Source: Candidatus Dormiibacterota bacterium
GTDB taxonomy: Bacteria; Chloroflexota; Dormibacteria; Aeolococcales; Bog-877
Length of the DNA stretch: 64,000 nucleotides
Direction of reading: 5' to 3'
NCBI GenBank assembly: GCA_035534695.1
Contig: DATLRN010000010.1
Span: 21,333 to 85,332, forward strand
The translations under genes and the position numbers were made by a program. The first letter of the stretch is position 1. Each line of letters starts with the position of its first letter. Below the pieces are notes generated by a model, which was given only the letters and a program-made list of their open reading frames with translations, made no database searches and had not been told where the DNA came from. Below, in pieces: positions 3,127-63,786 of this stretch.

Positions 3127-3799
3127 CTCACCCCGGTGGGCAGCGCGATCGATATTCTCGGTCATCGTACTGAGTCTGGTTGCGGGTTCTCTAGTTGCCC
3201 TTGTGGTGACCATGAGCACTTCGCGAGTCGGGACAATCAAGTTGCCGGAGAATAGCCTCGCCCGCTCCGTCGGCATCGGCCCAGGGCATCCAGGGGGTTT
3301 CTTGACCCCAGCGTGTCACGCGGCGAATGCGCGATGCCGGCGAGATATCGGCTCCGCCCGGGCGTCGGGCACCTCGGTACCATCGTGGGAACTCGCGATC
3401 GCCGGCTTGCTTGCTGCTGGCGCGGCCGGCGTCCTCTTGAAGACGCGGCGCACACAGCTGAGTGACCCCAGCCAAGTCAGCTCCAGTCTTGAATCATCGC
3501 CCAGGACTCGGCGAACGCCGGGCAACCCGAGGGAGATGGTGCTGGCGGCCTTCGCCGATGTCGAGGAACGCCTCACGAGCCGCGGGATTGCTAGAGAGAC
3601 ATGGGAGGCTCCGGAAAACTACCTGGCGCGGGCTGTACCGGGCAACACCCGCGCCGGATCCCCAGCTGGCAAATTGGCCCGACTTTATGCCCTGGCGCGT
3701 TATTCCCGGCATCCGATCGACAGGTCTTCGGCCACACAGGCCGAGGAGGCAGCGGCGGAGTTGAGCGACCACTTCGATCCGCCCTCCGAGGTTACATAA
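3119..3799 (+). CDS. membrane-anchored DUF4129-like protein, copy 1
   Basis: An N-terminal TM segment and a second TM (WELAIAGLLAAGAAGVLL). The C-terminal block REMVLAAFADVEERLTSRGIARETWEAPENY...LARLYALARYSRHP resembles DUF4129, which is found with MoxR/DUF58/transglutaminase loci. Confidence 0.65.
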   Translation: MLDSPRWAARSIFSVIVLSLVAGSLVALVVTMSTSRVGTIKLPENSLARSVGIGPGHPGGFLTPACHAANARCRRDIGSARASGTSVPSWELAIAGLLAAGAAGVLLKTRRTQLSDPSQVSSSLESSPRTRRTPGNPREMVLAAFADVEERLTSRGIARETWEAPENYLARAVPGNTRAGSPAGKLARLYALARYSRHPIDRSSATQAEEAAAELSDHFDPPSEVT

Positions 3800-3878
3800 A
3801 AGGTGCGCCGACTTACTGAGGCCGAGGAACCCAGCGTCGACCTAGCGCCTCTGCTGGACGCCGTCGAGCGGATCCAGG

Positions 3879-4550
3879 ATGAGTAATCCTCGCACACGTC
3901 TCGGGCAGTCGATGCCCTGGCTCATCGTGCTAAGTCTGGTCGCGACTTCTCTAGTTACCCTTGTTGTGATCATGAGCACTTCCCGAATCGGGACGATCAG
4001 GTTGCCCGAGCATAGACATACCGTCGTCCACATCCGCAAGAGGTCCCCAGGCGACGGCCACCTACCTTGTGACGCGGTCGGTGCCCAATGCCGTCGTGCT
4101 GTCACTCCATCCCGGGGCAGGAGCACTCCGGTGCCGCAGTGGGAACTCGCGCTCGCCGGCTTGCTTGCTGCAGGCGCGGTCGGCGTCCTCTGGAAGACGC
4201 GCCGCACACAGCTGAGTGACGCCAGCGACGCCGGCACCAGTCCTGAGTCATCGCCCAAGGCTCGCCGAACGCCGGCTAACCCCAGGGAGATCGTGCTGGC
4301 GGCCTTTGCCGATATCGAAGAACGCCTCACGAGCCGCGGGATTGCTAGCGAGACTTGGGAGGCACCGGAGAGCTACCCGGGTAGGGCGATACCGGACAGC
4401 GGACACTCCAGTCGCGCTGCTCACACACTGGCGCGCTTGTACGCACTGGCGCGCTACTCACATCACTCCATTGACACGGTCGCTGCGACCCAGGCTCTTG
4501 CTGCGTCGACTGAGCTGGCCTCCAGGTTGAGCACAGGCTCTAGCGTCTGA
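3879..4550 (+). CDS. membrane-anchored DUF4129-like protein, copy 2 (paralog of 3119..3799)
   Basis: It has the same architecture and long blocks identical to copy 1 (KTRRTQLSD, VLAAFAD.EERLTSRGIA.ETWEAPE, LARLYALARYS). Confidence 0.65.
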   Translation: MSNPRTRLGQSMPWLIVLSLVATSLVTLVVIMSTSRIGTIRLPEHRHTVVHIRKRSPGDGHLPCDAVGAQCRRAVTPSRGRSTPVPQWELALAGLLAAGAVGVLWKTRRTQLSDASDAGTSPESSPKARRTPANPREIVLAAFADIEERLTSRGIASETWEAPESYPGRAIPDSGHSSRAAHTLARLYALARYSHHSIDTVAATQALAASTELASRLSTGSSV

Positions 4551-57640: not shown

Positions 57641-57959
57641 CGGCGGCGTGCGTGCGCCGCCGCTGGGGCGGCTCCTCGAAATCTGTCGCAACCGAGTGCA
57701 GCAAAACGGTGAGACGCGTTGGACTCTCTCCTCAAGCGGGGGTCGGCGGGCCGGCCCCCTCCCGAACTCAAGCGTCGTGTGCGGTTCGGTGTCCCATGGG
57801 GTCATGGCGGAATGGAGCACTATCGGGTCGGTCCAGACGTATGGTCGTTGGTAAGGTCTGAGGTGTGAACCAAGACGCAGGAGACAGTTGTGCCTACGAA
57901 TCAAAGCGCGCGACGGCGCCTGCCGCTCTGTTGAGCGGGCAGGCCGAGGCGGCATCCCT

Positions 57960-59162
57960 GTGAGCGAGTTGCAGGCAAGGTCGAGCGAGGTGCTGTGTGA
58001 CACTTACCACAGAGCACCTCTGACCATTGAGAGTGGTGAGGGTGCTTGGCTGATCAGCGACTCAGGTGCGCGTCTGTTGGACTGCGTCGGTGGCATTGCG
58101 GTCAACGTCCTCGGACATGGACATCCCGGTTTGACGTCCGCCATCTCGGTGCAAGCGCAAAAGCAGATTCATCTCAGCAATCTGTACTTCAGCGAGCCAC
58201 AGGTGGCCCTGGCGGAGCGACTAGTTGCGAGTGCGTTCCCATCCCGCGTCTTCTTCAGCAACAGCGGCGCAGAGGCCAATGAGGCAGCGATCAAGATGGT
58301 GAGGAAGTGGGGAAGCCAGCAAGAGCGTGGGCCGCACGTTGTGGTAACCCTGAGTGGCGCCTTTCACGGACGGACCCTTGGTACCCTGGCGGCCACTGGC
58401 CGGGCAAAGTACAGCAATCCCTTTCAGCCACTGCCAGAGGGCTTCCGCCAAGTTCGGCGTGGCGACGTCGAGGCTCTCGAGTCGGCGCTGACCCCGGATG
58501 TGGTGGCGGTTCTGGTCGAGCCCATCCAGGGGGAAAGCGGAATCTTTGCCCTCTCGGATTCTCAGCTTCAGGAGATCCGTCGGCTCTGCGACCGATACGA
58601 CTGCCTTCTGGTGGTAGACGAGATCCAGTCAGGGATGGGCCGAACCGGCCGCATGTGGGCTCACCAGTGGTCCGGCATCGTCCCCGATCTAATGACGGTG
58701 GCCAAGGGACTCGCAGGAGGGGTTCCCATCGGGGCCACCTTGGCCGGGCCCCGCGCCGACGTCTTCGAACCTGGTGACCATGGGAGCACCTTCGGCGGCA
58801 ACCCGCTGGCCTCGGCGGCTGGATTGGCCGTCCTCGATGCCATCGAGAGCGAGCACCTGCTGGAGAATGCGACTCGGGTCGGCGCACGTCTGCGCGACGG
58901 GATCCTTGGCCTTCGGTCGGACGGGTTGCCGGTTCTTGAGGTGCGGGGGCGCGGATTAATGCTGGCGGTCGGCCTGCGGACCCCGATCGCGGCTGCTGTG
59001 GCCGATGCCGCTATCGACGCCGGCCTGTTGGTCAACGCCATCGGGCAGCGCACCATCCGTCTGCTCCCGCCGCTCACGATTAGTACGGCGGAGGCGGATC
59101 TGGCGGTAGAGCGGCTTGGAGTCGCGCTCACCGCCGTTAGCCGACCCAGCGTCTCAGCCTGA
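57960..59162 (+). CDS. lysJ: acetylornithine / [LysW]-aminoadipate-semialdehyde aminotransferase (ArgD/LysJ type)
   Basis: It is a class-III aminotransferase: GIAVNVLGHGHP, FFSNSGAEANEAAIK, VDEIQSGMGRTG, and TVAKGL (PLP Lys). GTG 57960 was chosen as the start. Confidence 0.8.
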   Translation: MSELQARSSEVLCDTYHRAPLTIESGEGAWLISDSGARLLDCVGGIAVNVLGHGHPGLTSAISVQAQKQIHLSNLYFSEPQVALAERLVASAFPSRVFFSNSGAEANEAAIKMVRKWGSQQERGPHVVVTLSGAFHGRTLGTLAATGRAKYSNPFQPLPEGFRQVRRGDVEALESALTPDVVAVLVEPIQGESGIFALSDSQLQEIRRLCDRYDCLLVVDEIQSGMGRTGRMWAHQWSGIVPDLMTVAKGLAGGVPIGATLAGPRADVFEPGDHGSTFGGNPLASAAGLAVLDAIESEHLLENATRVGARLRDGILGLRSDGLPVLEVRGRGLMLAVGLRTPIAAAVADAAIDAGLLVNAIGQRTIRLLPPLTISTAEADLAVERLGVALTAVSRPSVSA

Positions 59163-59262
59163 TCGGGAGGCCGTAGCCGTTTACCCGACGCGAGGCAGCT
59201 TGCGCCGTGCTTGCGTGCCCTGGTAAGGTCCGTGCCGACAACCGAATAGCAAAGGCGTAGAC

Positions 59263-59556
59263 GAGGACGAGTACGGAGGACGGATTCCTTCTAGAGAGTG
59301 GCCGGTAGCTGCAAAGGCCACAGGGATCACCTTCGGGAAAAAGACCTCCGAGCCGCGGGAAGAACCCGATAGTCGGTCGGAAGTAGAACCCGCCGGAAGC
59401 CCCACCGTCATCCGGGGCAAGGTGTGATGGCACCCGACGAGGCCAGCGCTGCGAGGCGCTGGCGAAGTGAGGTGGTACCGCGTGGCCGACGACCCCATGG
59501 GTCTGGCACCGCCCTCACGGTCGACTGATTTTCGGTCGACCGGACGGGGCGTGGCC
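59263..59556 (+). promoter_or_regulatory. T-box leader RNA, specifier AAG (Lys)
   Basis: The elements were read directly.
- Stem I lower helix GAGG (59263-66) / CCUC (59345-48).
- AGUA (59270-73).
- Upper helix CGGAGG / CCUUCG.
- AG box AGAGAG (59293-98).
- Distal hairpin GUGGCC...GGCCAC.
- Specifier loop GGAA-AAG-A, with the codon at 59341-43.
- Stem III GCCAGCGC-ugcgag-GCGCUGGC (59442-63).
- T-box motif GAAGUGAGGUGGUACCGCG (59465-82), with UGGU at 59473-76.
- Competing hairpin at 59505-56. Confidence 0.8.
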
Positions 59557-59689
59557 AACGGGTCGGGAGGCGACGATGCGAAAGACGACCACCGGTGGGA
59601 CTCGGCGACCCAGAACTAGCAGTTTTGGTGCCGATATGGGATCGACGTCGAATCAGCCCGCGCTCATGTGCTCAATGGGGAGTGGCTGA

Positions 59690-59878
59690 ATGCCAGGTGA
59701 ATCGATGGCGTTGCAGGCTCAGTGCCCGGAGTGCGACGAGGCCATCGAGCTGCCTACCGGCACTTTGCAAGGCGAGATCGTGGCGTGTGGCGCGTGCCTG
59801 GCCGAGCTGGAAGTCATCGGGGTGGATCCGCTGGCGCTGGCGCTTGCCCCTGAAATCGAGGAGGACTGGGGCGAGTGA
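59690..59878 (+). CDS. lysW: amino-group carrier protein LysW
   Basis: The translation is MPGESMALQAQCPECDEAIELPTGTLQGEIVACGACLAELEVIGVDPLALALAPEIEEDWGE. It has the zinc ribbon and the canonical EDWGE C-terminus, and it is followed by lysX. An alternative start lies at ATG 59705. Confidence 0.9.
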   Translation: MPGESMALQAQCPECDEAIELPTGTLQGEIVACGACLAELEVIGVDPLALALAPEIEEDWGE

Positions 59879-60753
59879 GGGAGGTGCGCGTTGGTCTCGT
59901 CTATTCCCGGATCCGCGTTGAGGAGAAGCTCATCGTAGCGGAGCTTGCCCGGCACCGCAGCGTCCGCGTCGTCACCGTCGCCGATGACCTGATCCAAGCT
60001 TCGCTTGCTGGGCCCCAATTGGATTCTGCAGAGATCACAGCTCTGCGCGGGTGCCAAGTGGTGCTCGGCCGCTCGCTGAGCCATGTGCGGCAGCTGACTG
60101 TGGCCCGGCTACTTGAGGCTTGGAGAGTACCGTCGATCAACTCCGCAACGGTCCTCGAGGTGTGTGGCGACAAGATGCGAACCACCCTCGCGCTCGCCGG
60201 CGCGAACGTTCCCACTCCGCCGACGCGAGTCGCCTTCACGGTCGCGGCGGGCTTGGCAGCCGTCGAAGATCTCGGGTACCCGTGGGTGGTGAAGCCGAAC
60301 ACTGGCTCCTGGGGACGGCTCCTGGCGCGGGTTAACGATCGAGACGCAGCGGAGGCCGTCCTGGAGCACAAGGCACTGTTAGGTGGCTCGTTGCACCGGG
60401 TGCTCTACCTGCAGCAGTACGTGGACAAACCGGGCCGTGACATCCGAGCCTTCGTGATCGGGGGCAGCACTGTGGCCGCCATCGGGCGGCGCTCCGAGCA
60501 CTGGGTCACCAACACCGCTCGTGGCGCGGTGGCCGAGGCCGTCCCCGTCTCGGCTGAGCTGGACCAACTCTGTCGCCGAGCGGCGGTCGCTGTGGGGGGC
60601 GGGAACTTGGCGATCGACCTGCTCGAAGCCCCGGACGGACTCTTAGTCAATGAGGTGAACGCGACCATGGAGTTCCGCAACAGCGTGGCTCCCACCGGGA
60701 TCGACATCCCGGGCCTCTTGGTCGCCGACGCCCTCCGCTGGGCGGCTTCGTGA
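59875..60753 (+). CDS. lysX: LysX ([LysW]-alpha-aminoadipate/glutamate ligase, RimK-type ATP-grasp)
   Basis: VGLVYSRIRVEEKLIVAEL and the RimK/LysX ATP-grasp core (YPWVVKPNTGSWGRL, AIDLLE...LVNEVN) are present. The GTG overlaps the lysW stop (GTGA). Confidence 0.85.
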   Translation: MREVRVGLVYSRIRVEEKLIVAELARHRSVRVVTVADDLIQASLAGPQLDSAEITALRGCQVVLGRSLSHVRQLTVARLLEAWRVPSINSATVLEVCGDKMRTTLALAGANVPTPPTRVAFTVAAGLAAVEDLGYPWVVKPNTGSWGRLLARVNDRDAAEAVLEHKALLGGSLHRVLYLQQYVDKPGRDIRAFVIGGSTVAAIGRRSEHWVTNTARGAVAEAVPVSAELDQLCRRAAVAVGGGNLAIDLLEAPDGLLVNEVNATMEFRNSVAPTGIDIPGLLVADALRWAAS

Positions 60754-61790
60754 CTCTCCGAGTAAGCGTGGTGGCTGGCGCTGGCTACGTTGGGGGGGAG
60801 TTGGTGCGACTCCTGCTCGGGCACCCGGAAGTCGTCCTTGGGCAGATTACTTCTGACTCGCACCCGGGTCGGGTCATCGCCACAGTGCACCCCAATCTGC
60901 GCCACTTTCCCGCGCTCCGCTTTGCCAAGCCTGCCGACCTGGACATCTGCGACGTGCTCATCGTGGCTGACCGGGAGCCAAGCCTTGGCCGGACTCTGGC
61001 GGAGCTGCGGCAACTGGCCCCTTTAGTCATCGACTGCGGCCCCCGTCTGCGGTTTCGCGACGCCGACACTTTCCGCACTTGGTATGGAGGCGCCCCAGAG
61101 TCGGCCGACGCGCTGGCAACGGCCGTGTACGGATTACCAGAACTCCATCGGTCGCAGCTGCGTGGAGCCACCTTGGTGAGCGGTGCTGGGTGCTCCGCGG
61201 TAGCGTCCATTCTGTCCCTGCTGCCGCTAGTCCGCGCGGGCTGGCCGGTCCTCGGTCCTGCCGTCATCGAGGCTCGGTTCGGTTCGTCGGCGGCAGGATC
61301 GCGCCCCGAGGCCGCCTCGCACCATCCCGAGCGGTCGGGCGCGGTCCGGGTGTTTGCTCCTGCGGAGCACCGCCATTCGGCCGAGGTCGTCCAGGCGCTG
61401 GGGTGGCCCGCCGAAGCTGTCAGCTATTCAGCGGTTGCGATCGAGATGGTGCGGGGCATCTCGGTTTCGACCCATTGCTTGCTCGAGCGCCCCCTTTCAG
61501 ATCGTGACCTCTGGGCCGCGTTTCGGGATGTCTATCGCCGCGAGCCGTTCCTACGGATCGCTTCCCAGCGTTCCGGCTTGCACCGGTTTCCCGACCCGCG
61601 CTGGACGCTGGGCACCAACTTCTGCGACGTCGGCTTCGCCCTCGACCGATCCGGGCGACGGCTCACCCTCATGGCCGCCCTGGACAACTTGGGCAAGGGC
61701 GCCGCGGGCAACGTGATTCAGGCAATGAACTGTGCACTCGGCATGGACGAGAGCCTTGGACTTGGGTTCCCAGGACTGCACCCGATATGA
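60750..61790 (+). CDS. lysY: LysY / ArgC-type [LysW]-aminoadipyl-phosphate reductase
   Basis: It has the NAD(P)-binding motif VSVVAGAGYVGGELVRLLLGHPEV and the catalytic Cys in SGAGCSAVA. The start forms a GTGA overlap. Confidence 0.85.
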   Translation: MTLRVSVVAGAGYVGGELVRLLLGHPEVVLGQITSDSHPGRVIATVHPNLRHFPALRFAKPADLDICDVLIVADREPSLGRTLAELRQLAPLVIDCGPRLRFRDADTFRTWYGGAPESADALATAVYGLPELHRSQLRGATLVSGAGCSAVASILSLLPLVRAGWPVLGPAVIEARFGSSAAGSRPEAASHHPERSGAVRVFAPAEHRHSAEVVQALGWPAEAVSYSAVAIEMVRGISVSTHCLLERPLSDRDLWAAFRDVYRREPFLRIASQRSGLHRFPDPRWTLGTNFCDVGFALDRSGRRLTLMAALDNLGKGAAGNVIQAMNCALGMDESLGLGFPGLHPI

Positions 61791-62662
61791 GCGCTCGCGC
61801 CATCGCAGCCCGCGCAAGGGCGGGGCCCCCGGTGCTGGTCGTGAAGGTTGGGGGTGGCACTGCCATCGACATGGACGCTGTTTGCACCGACCTGGCCACC
61901 CGGACGGGCCAGGAACCGATCGTAGTTCTCCATGGCGCGTCCAAGGAACTGGATCGAGTCTCCATCGCGATGGGCCATCCACCTGTGAGGCTGCAGTCGG
62001 CCTCCGGGATCGAGAGCCGTTTCACCGACGACGCCACCATGGAGATCTTCAGCATGGTCTACGCCGGCCGCGCCAACCCGAAACTCGTGGAGCGTCTCCA
62101 GCGACTGGGTGTCAACGCGGTGGGCTTGTGCGGAATTGATGGAGGTCTGCTCCGTGGACCCGAGAAAGGAACACTCCGAGCTCGGCTTCCAGATGGCCGC
62201 GAGCAGGTGATTAGAGGGGACCGCTCCGGCACGGTGGCGGCCGTAAATGGGAACCTGCTCCATCTGCTTCTGGACGGTGGGTATGTGCCGGTGCTTAGTC
62301 CGCCGGCGCTGTCGGATCACGGGCGGGCAATGAACGTGGACGGGGACCGGGCCGCCGCCCAGGTTGCGATGGCTCTCGGCGCGGAGACGCTGGTCATCCT
62401 GAGCGACGTTCCGGGGCTTTTGCTGGATCCGGCGAATCCCGACTCAATCGTGAGCGACGTCCGTCCTCATGAGATCGGTCGGGCGATGGAGGTGGCTCGG
62501 GGAAGGATGCGGGTGAAGGTGATGGCGGCCCGGGAAGCACTCAAGGGCGGCGTATCCCGGGTGGTGGTCGGGGACGGGCGTGTTGCCCGTCCTGTCGAGC
62601 TGGCTCTGCGCGGTGGCGGGACGGTATTCCGGCGTCGGGGTGTGGCCCGAGCAGGTCGGTGA
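61787..62662 (+). CDS. lysZ: LysZ / ArgB-type [LysW]-aminoadipate kinase
   Basis: It has the amino-acid kinase fold: VLVVKVGGG, VVLHGASK, and NVDGDRAAAQVAMAL. The start forms an ATGA overlap. Confidence 0.85.
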   Translation: MSARAIAARARAGPPVLVVKVGGGTAIDMDAVCTDLATRTGQEPIVVLHGASKELDRVSIAMGHPPVRLQSASGIESRFTDDATMEIFSMVYAGRANPKLVERLQRLGVNAVGLCGIDGGLLRGPEKGTLRARLPDGREQVIRGDRSGTVAAVNGNLLHLLLDGGYVPVLSPPALSDHGRAMNVDGDRAAAQVAMALGAETLVILSDVPGLLLDPANPDSIVSDVRPHEIGRAMEVARGRMRVKVMAAREALKGGVSRVVVGDGRVARPVELALRGGGTVFRRRGVARAGR

Positions 62663-63786
62663 CAGTCCCCCCCGCCAGCGACTCGGCTGCCCGGGGCAGC
62701 TCGTGCACTCGAGCGGCGGCACCCGATGCCGCCAGCCCGGAGGAACTGGACTTGCTGATGCAACTGGTCGCCATCCCGAGCTTCTCCGGGGAGGAGCAGC
62801 GGGCTGCGGCCTGGCTGGTGAGCCGCCTGGAAGCCCTGGGGGTTGAATCCACAGTTGACGAGGTTGGCAATGTCGTGGCAGTCATCGCACCCAGTGCTTC
62901 CGAGTCGGTCGACGGCGACATCTACCTGCTGGGCCACCTGGACACCGTCGACGGATTCTGGCCCCCCACACTCGTCGAAGGCCGGCTGTCGGGTCGTGGC
63001 AGTTCGGATGCCAAGGGTCCGCTCGCTGCCTTCATCGCTGCCGCCGTACGGGCTCGAGTTGACGGCCGGCTCCGCCGGCGCGTTCACATCTTGGCCGCAG
63101 TGGAGGAGGAAACGTCGTCCCGCGGTGCGGCGCACCTGGCGCGGACCCTTCTGGCTCCGGTCTTCCTCGTAGTCGGTGAGCCCTCCGGGTGGGACCATCT
63201 GGTGCTTGGCTACCGAGGCTCAGCTCACGTCTCGATACGAGTCGAGTGCGCCGCTGGCCACAGCTCTCGTCCCGACGCCACGGCCGCCGAGCTCGCAGTG
63301 GGCGCCTGGGCAGCGGTTGAACAGCTGTCTGACAAGCTGAATGGCGGGGCCGTGGGATTCAACGCTCTGAACGCCCACCTGCTTGGCATCGAGTCCGGCA
63401 GTGACGGCCTGGTCGACTTTGCCACCCTGCACATAGGCTTCCGGCTGCCGGCGCGGATTCCGGGGTCCGTACTCATGGAGACACTCGGTCAACTGGACCA
63501 CGTCACCATGCAGATGAGCCGACTGGGTGATGCGGTGCTGGTGCCCCGTACCGGTCCTCTGCCCACCGCCTTCGCGACCGCGATTCGTCAGCACAGGATG
63601 CTACCCGTTTGGCAACGGCGGCTCGGTACTTCAGACCTAAACGTCGTCCTTCCCAAATGGCGGTGCCCGGCCGTGGTATATGGGCCGGGGAGCGCCGAGC
63701 TGGACCACACTCCATACGAATCATTGGAGATCAACGACTACGGTCGAGCGATCCACGTACTGACATCGGTCCTCATCGGGCTCTGA
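62659..63786 (+). CDS. lysK: LysK / ArgE-type M20 metallopeptidase ([LysW]-lysine hydrolase)
   Basis: It belongs to the M20 family: LVAIPSFSGEE, GHLDTV, GRGSSDAKG, and EEETSS. The start forms a GTGA overlap. It is the last gene of the cluster. Confidence 0.8.
   Translation: MTVPPASDSAARGSSCTRAAAPDAASPEELDLLMQLVAIPSFSGEEQRAAAWLVSRLEALGVESTVDEVGNVVAVIAPSASESVDGDIYLLGHLDTVDGFWPPTLVEGRLSGRGSSDAKGPLAAFIAAAVRARVDGRLRRRVHILAAVEEETSSRGAAHLARTLLAPVFLVVGEPSGWDHLVLGYRGSAHVSIRVECAAGHSSRPDATAAELAVGAWAAVEQLSDKLNGGAVGFNALNAHLLGIESGSDGLVDFATLHIGFRLPARIPGSVLMETLGQLDHVTMQMSRLGDAVLVPRTGPLPTAFATAIRQHRMLPVWQRRLGTSDLNVVLPKWRCPAVVYGPGSAELDHTPYESLEINDYGRAIHVLTSVLIGL

Follow-up and report, generated by a model that had tools for sequence, protein, structure and literature searches.

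What does the structured leader in front of the lysine biosynthesis genes of an uncultured soil bacterium, Candidatus Dormiibacterota bacterium, sense, and how does it pass the signal on to the genes behind it? The leader lies on the + strand of a 64,000-nt stretch of contig DATLRN010000010.1 (positions 21,333 to 85,332), here called the window, and the initial annotation described it as a T-box riboswitch with a lysine (AAG) specifier at 59263–59556, preceding lysW-lysX-lysY-lysZ-lysK. The element is a complete and conserved T-box with a lysine specifier, and it is joined to genes of the lysine pathway. Very probably it is a functional lysine T-box that governs the lysW operon. With less confidence, we favour a fuller account, in which a working tRNA-Lys T-box, derived from an ancestral homocitrate synthase (hcs) operon with its own promoter, acts through an output that is probably translational or coupled to translation.

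The Rfam T-box model (RF00230) aligns over its whole length (positions 1–219 of 219) to 59249–59499 of the + strand, with a score of 77.8 bits and E-values of 4.1e-17 in a 651-nt scan and 4.1e-15 for the whole 64 kb. It is the sole Rfam family with E ≤ 0.01 across the window; Rfam scans of the 64 kb, with default settings and with E-value reporting, found no L-box and no other family. The covariance-model search proposed as a check on the annotation thus matched a T-box, although below the gathering score of 93, and a default scan at that threshold returns nothing for the window. The gathering score is an operational cut-off, and the value reached here is probably lowered by the high GC content and by long insertions within helix A2 and Stem II. 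The positions 59263–59556 do hold T-box elements, but the real element is larger: Stem I begins at 59254, a promoter-like pair lies at 59200–59229, and the Shine-Dalgarno (SD) sequence and AUG carry it through 59565–59578.

Every motif named in the annotation is present at its assigned place on the + strand. Stem I spans 59254–59354 and is recognised with 87.7 bits (E 5e-21) by our own covariance model, R1, which was built on an alignment of 14 Stem I regions (alignment A1). Within it, the S-turn half AGUA is found at 59270–59273, the AG bulge AGAGAG at 59293–59298, and the distal hairpin and loop at 59299–59322. The 3' side of the specifier loop reads GAA-A-AAG-A (59337–59344), with the lysine codon AAG at 59341–59343. 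In the Rfam alignment, the model consensus GAA-a-uuc-a-CC lies over GAA-A-AAG-A-CC of the window, which places AAG, and no other codon, in the codon columns and the usual purine next to it. The motif GAA-N-AAG (N = A, G, or U) is invariant in the 14 aligned Stem I regions, where RNAalifold finds compensatory changes in 10 of the 17 pairs of the stem. Upstream, the promoter-like pair consists of TTGCGC (59200–59205) and TAAGGT (59224–59229) separated by 18 nt, and is followed by a conserved ACAACCGAAUA just 5' of Stem I. The pair fails the criteria of a promoter consensus scan; in the upstream alignment, it coincides in position with GCTTGC and TTAGAA, 17 nt apart, in three related contigs (L153, L109, and L118).

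The full fold was tested on 13 Dormibacterota leaders (alignment A6, 85% mean identity) and comprised Stem I, Stem II, the Stem IIA/B pseudoknot, a small hairpin, Stem III, and helices A1 and A2 of the discriminator. Standard pairs occupy 97.0% of cells, and 20 of the 73 pairs change on both sides. None of 500 column shuffles matched these values, and slid versions of the structure pair in 39–47% of cells; the structure was drawn partly from the same alignment and is therefore somewhat favoured by the test. Stem II with its S-turn (59355–59393) and the pseudoknot (59394–59418) pair in 97–100% of cells, and pseudoknot pairs 154:171 and 155:170 show compensatory C:G to U:A changes. Stem III (59442–59463) is a perfect 8-bp hairpin, GCCAGCGC-UGCGAG-GCGCUGGC, whose helix has compensatory changes in 5 of 9 pairs among the 13 leaders. 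The T-box sequence GGUGGUACCGCG follows at 59471–59482.

The T-box sequence lies on the 5' side of the discriminator (antiterminator or antisequestrator, 59467–59518), which is paired in 96.9% of cells as compared to 34–59% when A1 and A2 are slid. Helix A1 is formed by 59467–59472 with 59513–59518, the 7-nt bulge UGGUACC occupies 59473–59479, and helix A2 extends over 59480–59512. Helix A2 is enlarged throughout the 13 leaders (~27–33 nt from GCG to CGC). The window has GUGAGG/CCUCAC as helix A1 and most relatives have AAGAGG/CCUCUU, a difference of two pairs changed on both sides. Since both double substitutions preserve pairing, the discriminator has been kept under selection in the lineage of the window. 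Bacterial tRNA-Lys carries A73, which would match the U of UGGU in the bulge.

The specifier is best judged from the homologous leaders. LysX relatives were collected with one genome per species, from Dormibacterota metagenome-assembled genomes (up to 73% identity) and then from Ktedonobacteria, Thermomicrobia, and others. A Rfam scan of 12 LysX loci with E-value reporting gave 13 T-box matches (55–95 bits), all just upstream of lysW-lysX. R1 returned 77 matches in the window and 80 loci, 75 of which are located in 44 loci of Chloroflexota and Dormibacterota, on the strand of lysX and 496–1170 nt upstream of it. Two matches stand in tandem in 31 loci, nearly all of them from Ktedonobacteria; a single match is present in 13 loci, including Thermomicrobia, Nitrolancea, and the Dormibacterota locus L001. 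The codon columns read AAG in 49 and AAA in 26 of the 77 matches. All 75 leaders upstream of lysX carry one or the other, and the base before the codon varies. R1 was trained on AAG leaders and is biased towards AAR, yet the AAA class was recovered unprompted. Synonymous exchange of AAG and AAA next to a free preceding base is the expected signature of a lysine specifier, and the assignment made in the annotation is upheld on this ground as well as by the Rfam codon columns. The choice of AAG fits the organism, as the window has 64.8% GC and the operon genes use AAG for 17 lysines and AAA for 4.

The same leader is found in front of homocitrate synthase in sister genomes. A pattern scan of metagenome contigs followed by an R1 filter yielded L153, L109, and L118, whose leaders are ~80% identical to that of the window and in which the ATG after GGAGG is the true start of homocitrate synthase. 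The L153 operon has the order T-box-hcs-lysT-lysU-lysW-lysX-lysY-lysZ-lysK. Searching with the L153 homocitrate synthase protein gave eight Dormibacterota homologues (64–74% identity) on 14 contigs, and all 14 have a Stem I match (77–88 bits) ~322 nt upstream of the hcs ATG, with AAG as specifier in each. The most extended cluster, in L216, reads PHP-lysJ-[T-box]-hcs-lysT-lysU-lysW-lysX-lysY-lysZ-lysK-hicdh, and the synteny lysJ-[T-box]-hcs is kept in intact relatives. The leader of the window is ~85% identical to the hcs leaders, the promoter-like region included. Because homocitrate synthase is specific to the aminoadipate route and stands under this leader, the LysW cluster can be assigned to lysine; the proposal that it serves lysine rather than arginine synthesis is thereby strengthened. 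We rejected an impression that most Dormibacterota lack the T-box, which arose from a 3-kb flank that cut off the hcs start; the leader is present at all 14 hcs starts that were fetched. One of these, L205, is located on the same contig as the LysX locus L002.

In the other Dormibacterota LysX loci, hcs-lysT-lysU stands immediately before lysW. The exceptions are the window and L001, in which the leader lies directly before the lysW region without an intact hcs-lysT-lysU. Whereas hcs, lysT, lysU, and hicdh are contiguous with the cluster in relatives such as L216, they are absent from it here, and tblastn searches of the 64 kb for hcs, lysT, and lysU found none of them. The leader does front the lysW operon as annotated, but a 37-codon open reading frame (59576–59689, + strand) that had gone unnoticed follows it directly. 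The window remains similar to hcs leaders past the SD and the AUG and into the first few codons, and frame 2 of 59640–59699 encodes VESARAHVLNGE, which resembles the LysU C-terminus LELVRAHGSLNG in an eye-level match that carries no statistic. In L001, the intervening 300 nt contain colinear matches to the 5' end of hcs, CGCGGAAC (offset 8–15) and CGAGCAGTTC (63–72), and a match to the 3' end of lysU (blastn E 1e-5). The data are most simply read as a deletion that starts just within hcs and stops close to the end of lysU, with end points that would differ in the window and L001. The frame would then be a fusion relic, the hcs start joined to an out-of-frame 3' remnant of lysU, and not a gene. 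A conserved small protein at 59576–59689 was considered and rejected; the frame has no family match, and its L001 counterpart has 102 residues of unrelated sequence. By our own estimate, a 37-codon open frame has a chance of ~0.37 at 65% GC and is not unusual. The relic contains a single lysine codon and is therefore not a lysine-rich attenuator peptide. Its UGA (59687–59689) immediately precedes the lysW AUG at 59690; in L001, the relic overlaps the lysW start by 10 nt.

These data suggest an ancestor with the order lysJ-[T-box]-hcs-lysT-lysU-lysW-lysX-lysY-lysZ-lysK(-hicdh), from which a deletion would have placed the leader directly before lysW. The anticodon of tRNA-Lys (CUU or modified UUU) would pair with AAG at 59341–59343, a function that we infer from the family. 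Only an uncharged tRNA could then pair its 3' ACCA with UGGU at 59473–59476 and stabilise A1/A2 (59467–59518). With charged tRNA-Lys, the 3' strands of A2 and A1 would refold into a more stable hairpin at 59505–59556. The ancestral output would have been ribosome access to the first cistron, with the downstream genes following by translational coupling, polarity, or both. In the window, the stop codon of the relic abuts the lysW AUG and would permit coupling.

The alternative hairpin is predicted by RNAalifold from the 13 leaders. Its core (59505–59556) takes up the 3' strands of A2 and A1, and a weak outer extension pairs 59500–59504 with 59560–59564; no U-tract follows. Pairs are kept in 94.5% of cells, as compared to 21–48% for slid versions. 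The free fold of the window (−68.5 kcal/mol) is ~10 kcal/mol more stable than the fold in which the discriminator is forced (−58.9 kcal/mol), and in the relatives, the difference is 12–22 kcal/mol. By these calculations, a mutually exclusive and more stable alternative fold exists at the output end. The hairpin differs from its Chloroflexota counterparts. In the homologous leaders of that phylum, the 3' strand of the antiterminator forms a hairpin followed by a U run, a canonical terminator, whereas a U run is absent after the hairpin in 13 of 13 Dormibacterota leaders and a terminator scan of the + strand from 58900 to 59900 found no terminator-like site. An intrinsic terminator behind the T-box of the window was accordingly rejected. 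The annotation had overlooked the missing U-tract.

What follows the hairpin is a ribosome binding site. The SD GGGAGG (59565–59570) is positioned 5 nt before the AUG at 59576. GGAGG and a start codon occupy the same alignment columns in 13 of 13 leaders, 8–9 nt after the hairpin core, and in the 11 leaders of hcs type, this is the real start of homocitrate synthase. A translational output is suggested because the hairpin lacks a U-tract and a strong SD and start lie at a fixed distance throughout the clade. Exposure of the SD was calculated from partition functions of single sequences, comparing the free ensemble with one in which the discriminator was forced; the alignment itself is ambiguous in the columns of the SD and the apical strand of A2, where a gap falls inside a C-run. 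In the free ensemble, 10 of 12 relatives have a mostly paired SD (unpaired probability 0.01–0.23, 0.20 in most), which is predicted to pair with the C/U-rich apical strand on the 5' side of helix A2. When the discriminator is forced, the unpaired probability rises to 0.46–0.67 in 9 of these 10, L153 staying at 0.24. In L001, it is 0.01 free and 0.60 forced; the value changes little or not at all in L205 and L209. Predicted masking is largely eroded in the window, where the strength and level of lysW regulation are uncertain. Granted a functional lysine T-box, we consider it somewhat more probable that its output is mainly translational or exerted by coupling than that it is not. A more specific scenario is offered tentatively: in this Dormibacterota clade, a lysine T-box with long Stem I may have exchanged its U-tract terminator for masking of the SD by the 5' apical strand of A2, and translation of the relic frame may couple tRNA-Lys charging to lysW. 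If true, a T-box with translational output would exist outside Actinobacteria and would act via a vestigial upstream open reading frame.

The strongest competitor retains the lysine T-box and gives it a transcriptional output, the hairpin at 59505–59556 stopping or stalling RNA polymerase without a U-tract or exposing the untranslated leader to Rho; with uncharged tRNA-Lys, transcription would continue into lysW. This hairpin corresponds in position to the terminators of the lysine T-boxes of Chloroflexota, and nothing else in the output end of the window is as well conserved or as stable. Stem I is of the long type usual in transcriptional T-boxes, and lysW would be regulated even with the SD of the relic frame unmasked. 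In addition, sites with a terminator-like U-tract are not enriched in the window (28 found at 1–60000 and ~29 expected from shuffled sequence), which suggests that canonical intrinsic terminators play only a minor role in this organism and that it may terminate transcription differently. Intrinsic termination by a hairpin only is contested. The missing U-tract in 13 of 13 leaders speaks against this alternative, and the conserved SD and start 8–9 nt after the hairpin core, with masking predicted in most relatives, fit translation better. We regard a transcriptional output as a serious alternative, though as rather unlikely.

Several observations weigh against the translational account, or against the identification as a whole. 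The Rfam score is sub-threshold. The window and the close loci contain no tRNA gene from which the anticodon and discriminator base of tRNA-Lys could be read (tRNA genes near Ktedonobacteria leaders were looked at and set aside as unrelated tRNA-Ala). The long Stem I, with its elbow-binding distal motifs, is typical of transcriptional T-boxes. Among the 13 leaders, which are 85% identical, there is next to no covariation in the alternative hairpin or in the pairing of the SD. For the window, the prediction leaves the SD unpaired whether the fold is free (0.91) or forced (0.79). A basal helix of CCGCG in the T-box with codons 3–5 was also examined; it shows a C:G to U:A change in an alignment of five sequences, is not kept across the 13, and is broken in the window, and it was discarded. 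Finally, lysW has SD-like sequences of its own, GGGGAG (59676–59681) and AGGUGA (59694–59699), so control of the relic frame need not reach lysW.

Some of the same observations could mean that the leader has been an inert relic since the loss of hcs and lysTU, with lysW to lysK expressed from the leader promoter or by read-through from lysJ regardless of lysine. In the window, only a vestige of the first cistron is left, the predictions no longer show SD masking, and the outer helices of the OFF fold (the hairpin state) are weakened. All the sensor motifs are intact, however, and the substitutions in A1 and Stem I relative to the hcs leaders are compensatory and not disruptive. L001, with other deletion end points, also retains the arrangement of leader and lysW and an intact T-box. 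A dead leader is accordingly quite improbable.

LysW systems can serve arginine synthesis, and the weakest alternative reads the specifier one base later, as AGA in the window (GAAAAAGACC) or AGG in the Thermomicrobia copies (GAAGAAGGCC), so that tRNA-Arg would be sensed and the cluster would make ornithine and arginine as in some archaea; we rejected it as barely credible, because Rfam places the codon on AAG with the usual purine after it, the shifted frame of AAA-type leaders (GAA-U-AAA-A) gives AAA, AAG, or AAC and never arginine, the lysine-specific homocitrate synthase is under the same leader, and LysZ exceeds the cut-off of the [LysW]-aminoadipate kinase model.

The genes around the leader are all on the + strand and were assigned by NCBIfam and Pfam matches on the source contig, which bear out the annotated order lysW-lysX-lysY-lysZ-lysK. 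Upstream, a class III aminotransferase of the lysJ/argD type (57960–59162) matches NF002874 at its cut-off (457 bits) and Pfam Aminotran_3; its longest open reading frame starts at 57888, and LysJ models match below their cut-offs. Downstream of the relic, lysW (59690–59878) matches TIGR01206 (56.5 bits, cut-off 53.2) and Pfam Zn_ribbon_LysW and ends in EDWGE; an alternative start, ATG 59705, is located 5 nt after AGGUGA. The ATP-grasp ligase gene lysX (59875–60753; TIGR02144, 293 bits, cut-off 275.6) is followed by lysY, an ArgC-type reductase (60750–61790; TIGR01850, 286 bits), and by lysZ, the [LysW]-aminoadipate kinase (61787–62662; NF010659, 333.7 bits, cut-off 223). The last gene, lysK (62659–63786), encodes an M20 peptidase of the [LysW]-lysine hydrolase type; it is below the cut-off of NF003367 (329.9 bits, cut-off 363) and above that of the subfamily model TIGR01902 (243 bits, cut-off 163). 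The genes after lysK are on the opposite strand and unrelated. The six pathway proteins encoded between 57960 and 63786 contain 21 lysine codons in 1772 (1.2%). UCACCU in Stem I (59328–59333) is the exact complement of AGGUGA at 59694–59699, ~365 nt away, which is probably a coincidence.

Feedback on lysine synthesis through a structured 5' leader is known in other forms. The aminoadipate lysine cluster of Thermus thermophilus is reportedly controlled by leader-peptide attenuation, with ribosome stalling at lysine codons. L-box riboswitches bind lysine directly. All three leaders give feedback, and the sensor differs, being tRNA-Lys charging here. The distribution of the L-box has been surveyed (PMC5584792). 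Lysine T-boxes are rare (PMC2916919; TBDB paper, PMC7778990). In TBDB, Lys is among the least common specifiers, and codons ending in A are preferred in >85% of two-codon families (PMC7778990), unlike the AAG of the window. The closest experimental case is the T-box of lysK, the class I LysRS gene of Bacillus cereus, which responds to uncharged tRNA-Lys (PMC2916919). It shares with the window the family, a lysine-codon specifier, and the ligand class; it differs in controlling a tRNA synthetase and having a terminator, whereas the leader of the window precedes LysW/aminoadipate genes and has no U-tract terminator, and it belongs to Firmicutes rather than Dormibacterota/Chloroflexota.

The proposed output has its closest parallel in the translational ileS T-boxes of Actinobacteria (Mycobacterium, Nocardia; PMC7583486). 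Most translational T-boxes come from Actinobacteria; a few possess a long Stem I, and insertions in helix A2 are frequent (PMC7583486). Shared features are the absence of a terminator, an SD near the discriminator, an extended A2, and high GC, and the proposed logic is alike, an antisequestrator opposing a fold that hides the SD. The ileS elements mostly have a short Stem I without elbow-binding distal motifs and are isoleucine-specific, whereas Stem I of the window is full-length and has both the AG bulge and the distal loop. Masking in this clade would moreover use the 5' apical strand of A2, a pairing predicted in the relatives and not in the window. The lysine T-boxes before lysW-lysX in Ktedonobacteria and Thermomicrobia have a homologous Stem I, an AAG or AAA specifier, and the same pathway behind them. 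They differ in having hairpin and U-tract terminators and, in 31 loci, a tandem arrangement; the window has a single copy and no U-tract.

The annotation called a tRNA-Lys T-box on a LysW operon unusual. This holds for the searchable literature: a full-text search for T-boxes in connection with lysW, lysX, aminoadipate, homocitrate synthase, or Ktedonobacter returned nothing relevant, two classic T-box surveys being outside its scope, and the RegPrecise survey (PMC3766115 supplement) lists no lysine T-box in five Chloroflexi genomes. The names lysW/lysX in PMC5584792 and in the PMC3766115 supplement refer to unrelated transporters. It does not hold for the genomes, as the arrangement is common in Ktedonobacteria, in Thermomicrobia, and in one Dormibacterota clade, and the full matches of TBDB or Rfam may already contain the K. 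racemifer copy. The sensor is standard; the target pathway and phylum appear to be new and the output end to be non-canonical.

These leaders define a widespread and previously undescribed lysine T-box regulon that takes in hcs and the lysW operon, with dapA added in other lineages. It extends the rare lysine class to another target, the LysW/aminoadipate pathway, and to a candidate phylum that is represented by metagenomes only. The leader can serve as an independent label that marks ambiguous LysW clusters as lysine and not arginine clusters. The homologous sensors, with a terminator in Chloroflexota and none in Dormibacterota, provide a setting in which exchanges of the output end can be studied. 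Only one of the 13 T-box matches tested, that of Ktedonobacter racemifer (L080:2014–2289), exceeds the gathering score of RF00230. The other 12 matches, from Dormibacterota and Chloroflexota, fall below it (E 1e-9 to 1e-19 for the set), the leaders of the Dormibacterota clade having 62.5–75 bits. The Rfam gathering score thus misses the whole clade and most Chloroflexota copies, and counts of T-box regulons are probably too low for phyla that are high in GC and poorly sampled.

A number of further elements were seen in the loci examined. The tandem lysine T-boxes (31 loci; for example L080:2014–2289 and 2358–2632, and also L010, L011, L013, L014, and L065) have a U-tract terminator for each copy, often with AAA as the codon of the first copy and AAG as that of the second. 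In a different lineage (L136, 1131–1500, and L121), a lysine T-box with a canonical U-tract terminator lies directly before homocitrate synthase, so both output types exist for hcs. On high-GC metagenome contigs (L106:3392–4400, L123 (−), L134, L146 (−), and L131), a dapA-like gene of the diaminopimelate route, named by eye from its N-terminal TALITPF motif only, stands behind a lysine T-box with terminator. The interval between T-box and dapA holds a conserved open reading frame of ~22 codons (M-Y-R-...-T-R-S-K-R-stop) with its own ribosome site, GGAGGUGAC. A weak Stem I-like match (30 bits) in L027 (1505–1607, − strand), with TCA at the specifier position, sits between two tRNA-Ala genes (1313–1388 and 1681–1756, − strand) and may be due to chance or to a different T-box. 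L118 contains a group II intron (3322–4044; D1–D4 and domain V/VI models) ~2 kb upstream of the hcs leader, and L153 carries a large signal recognition particle RNA gene at 146–410.

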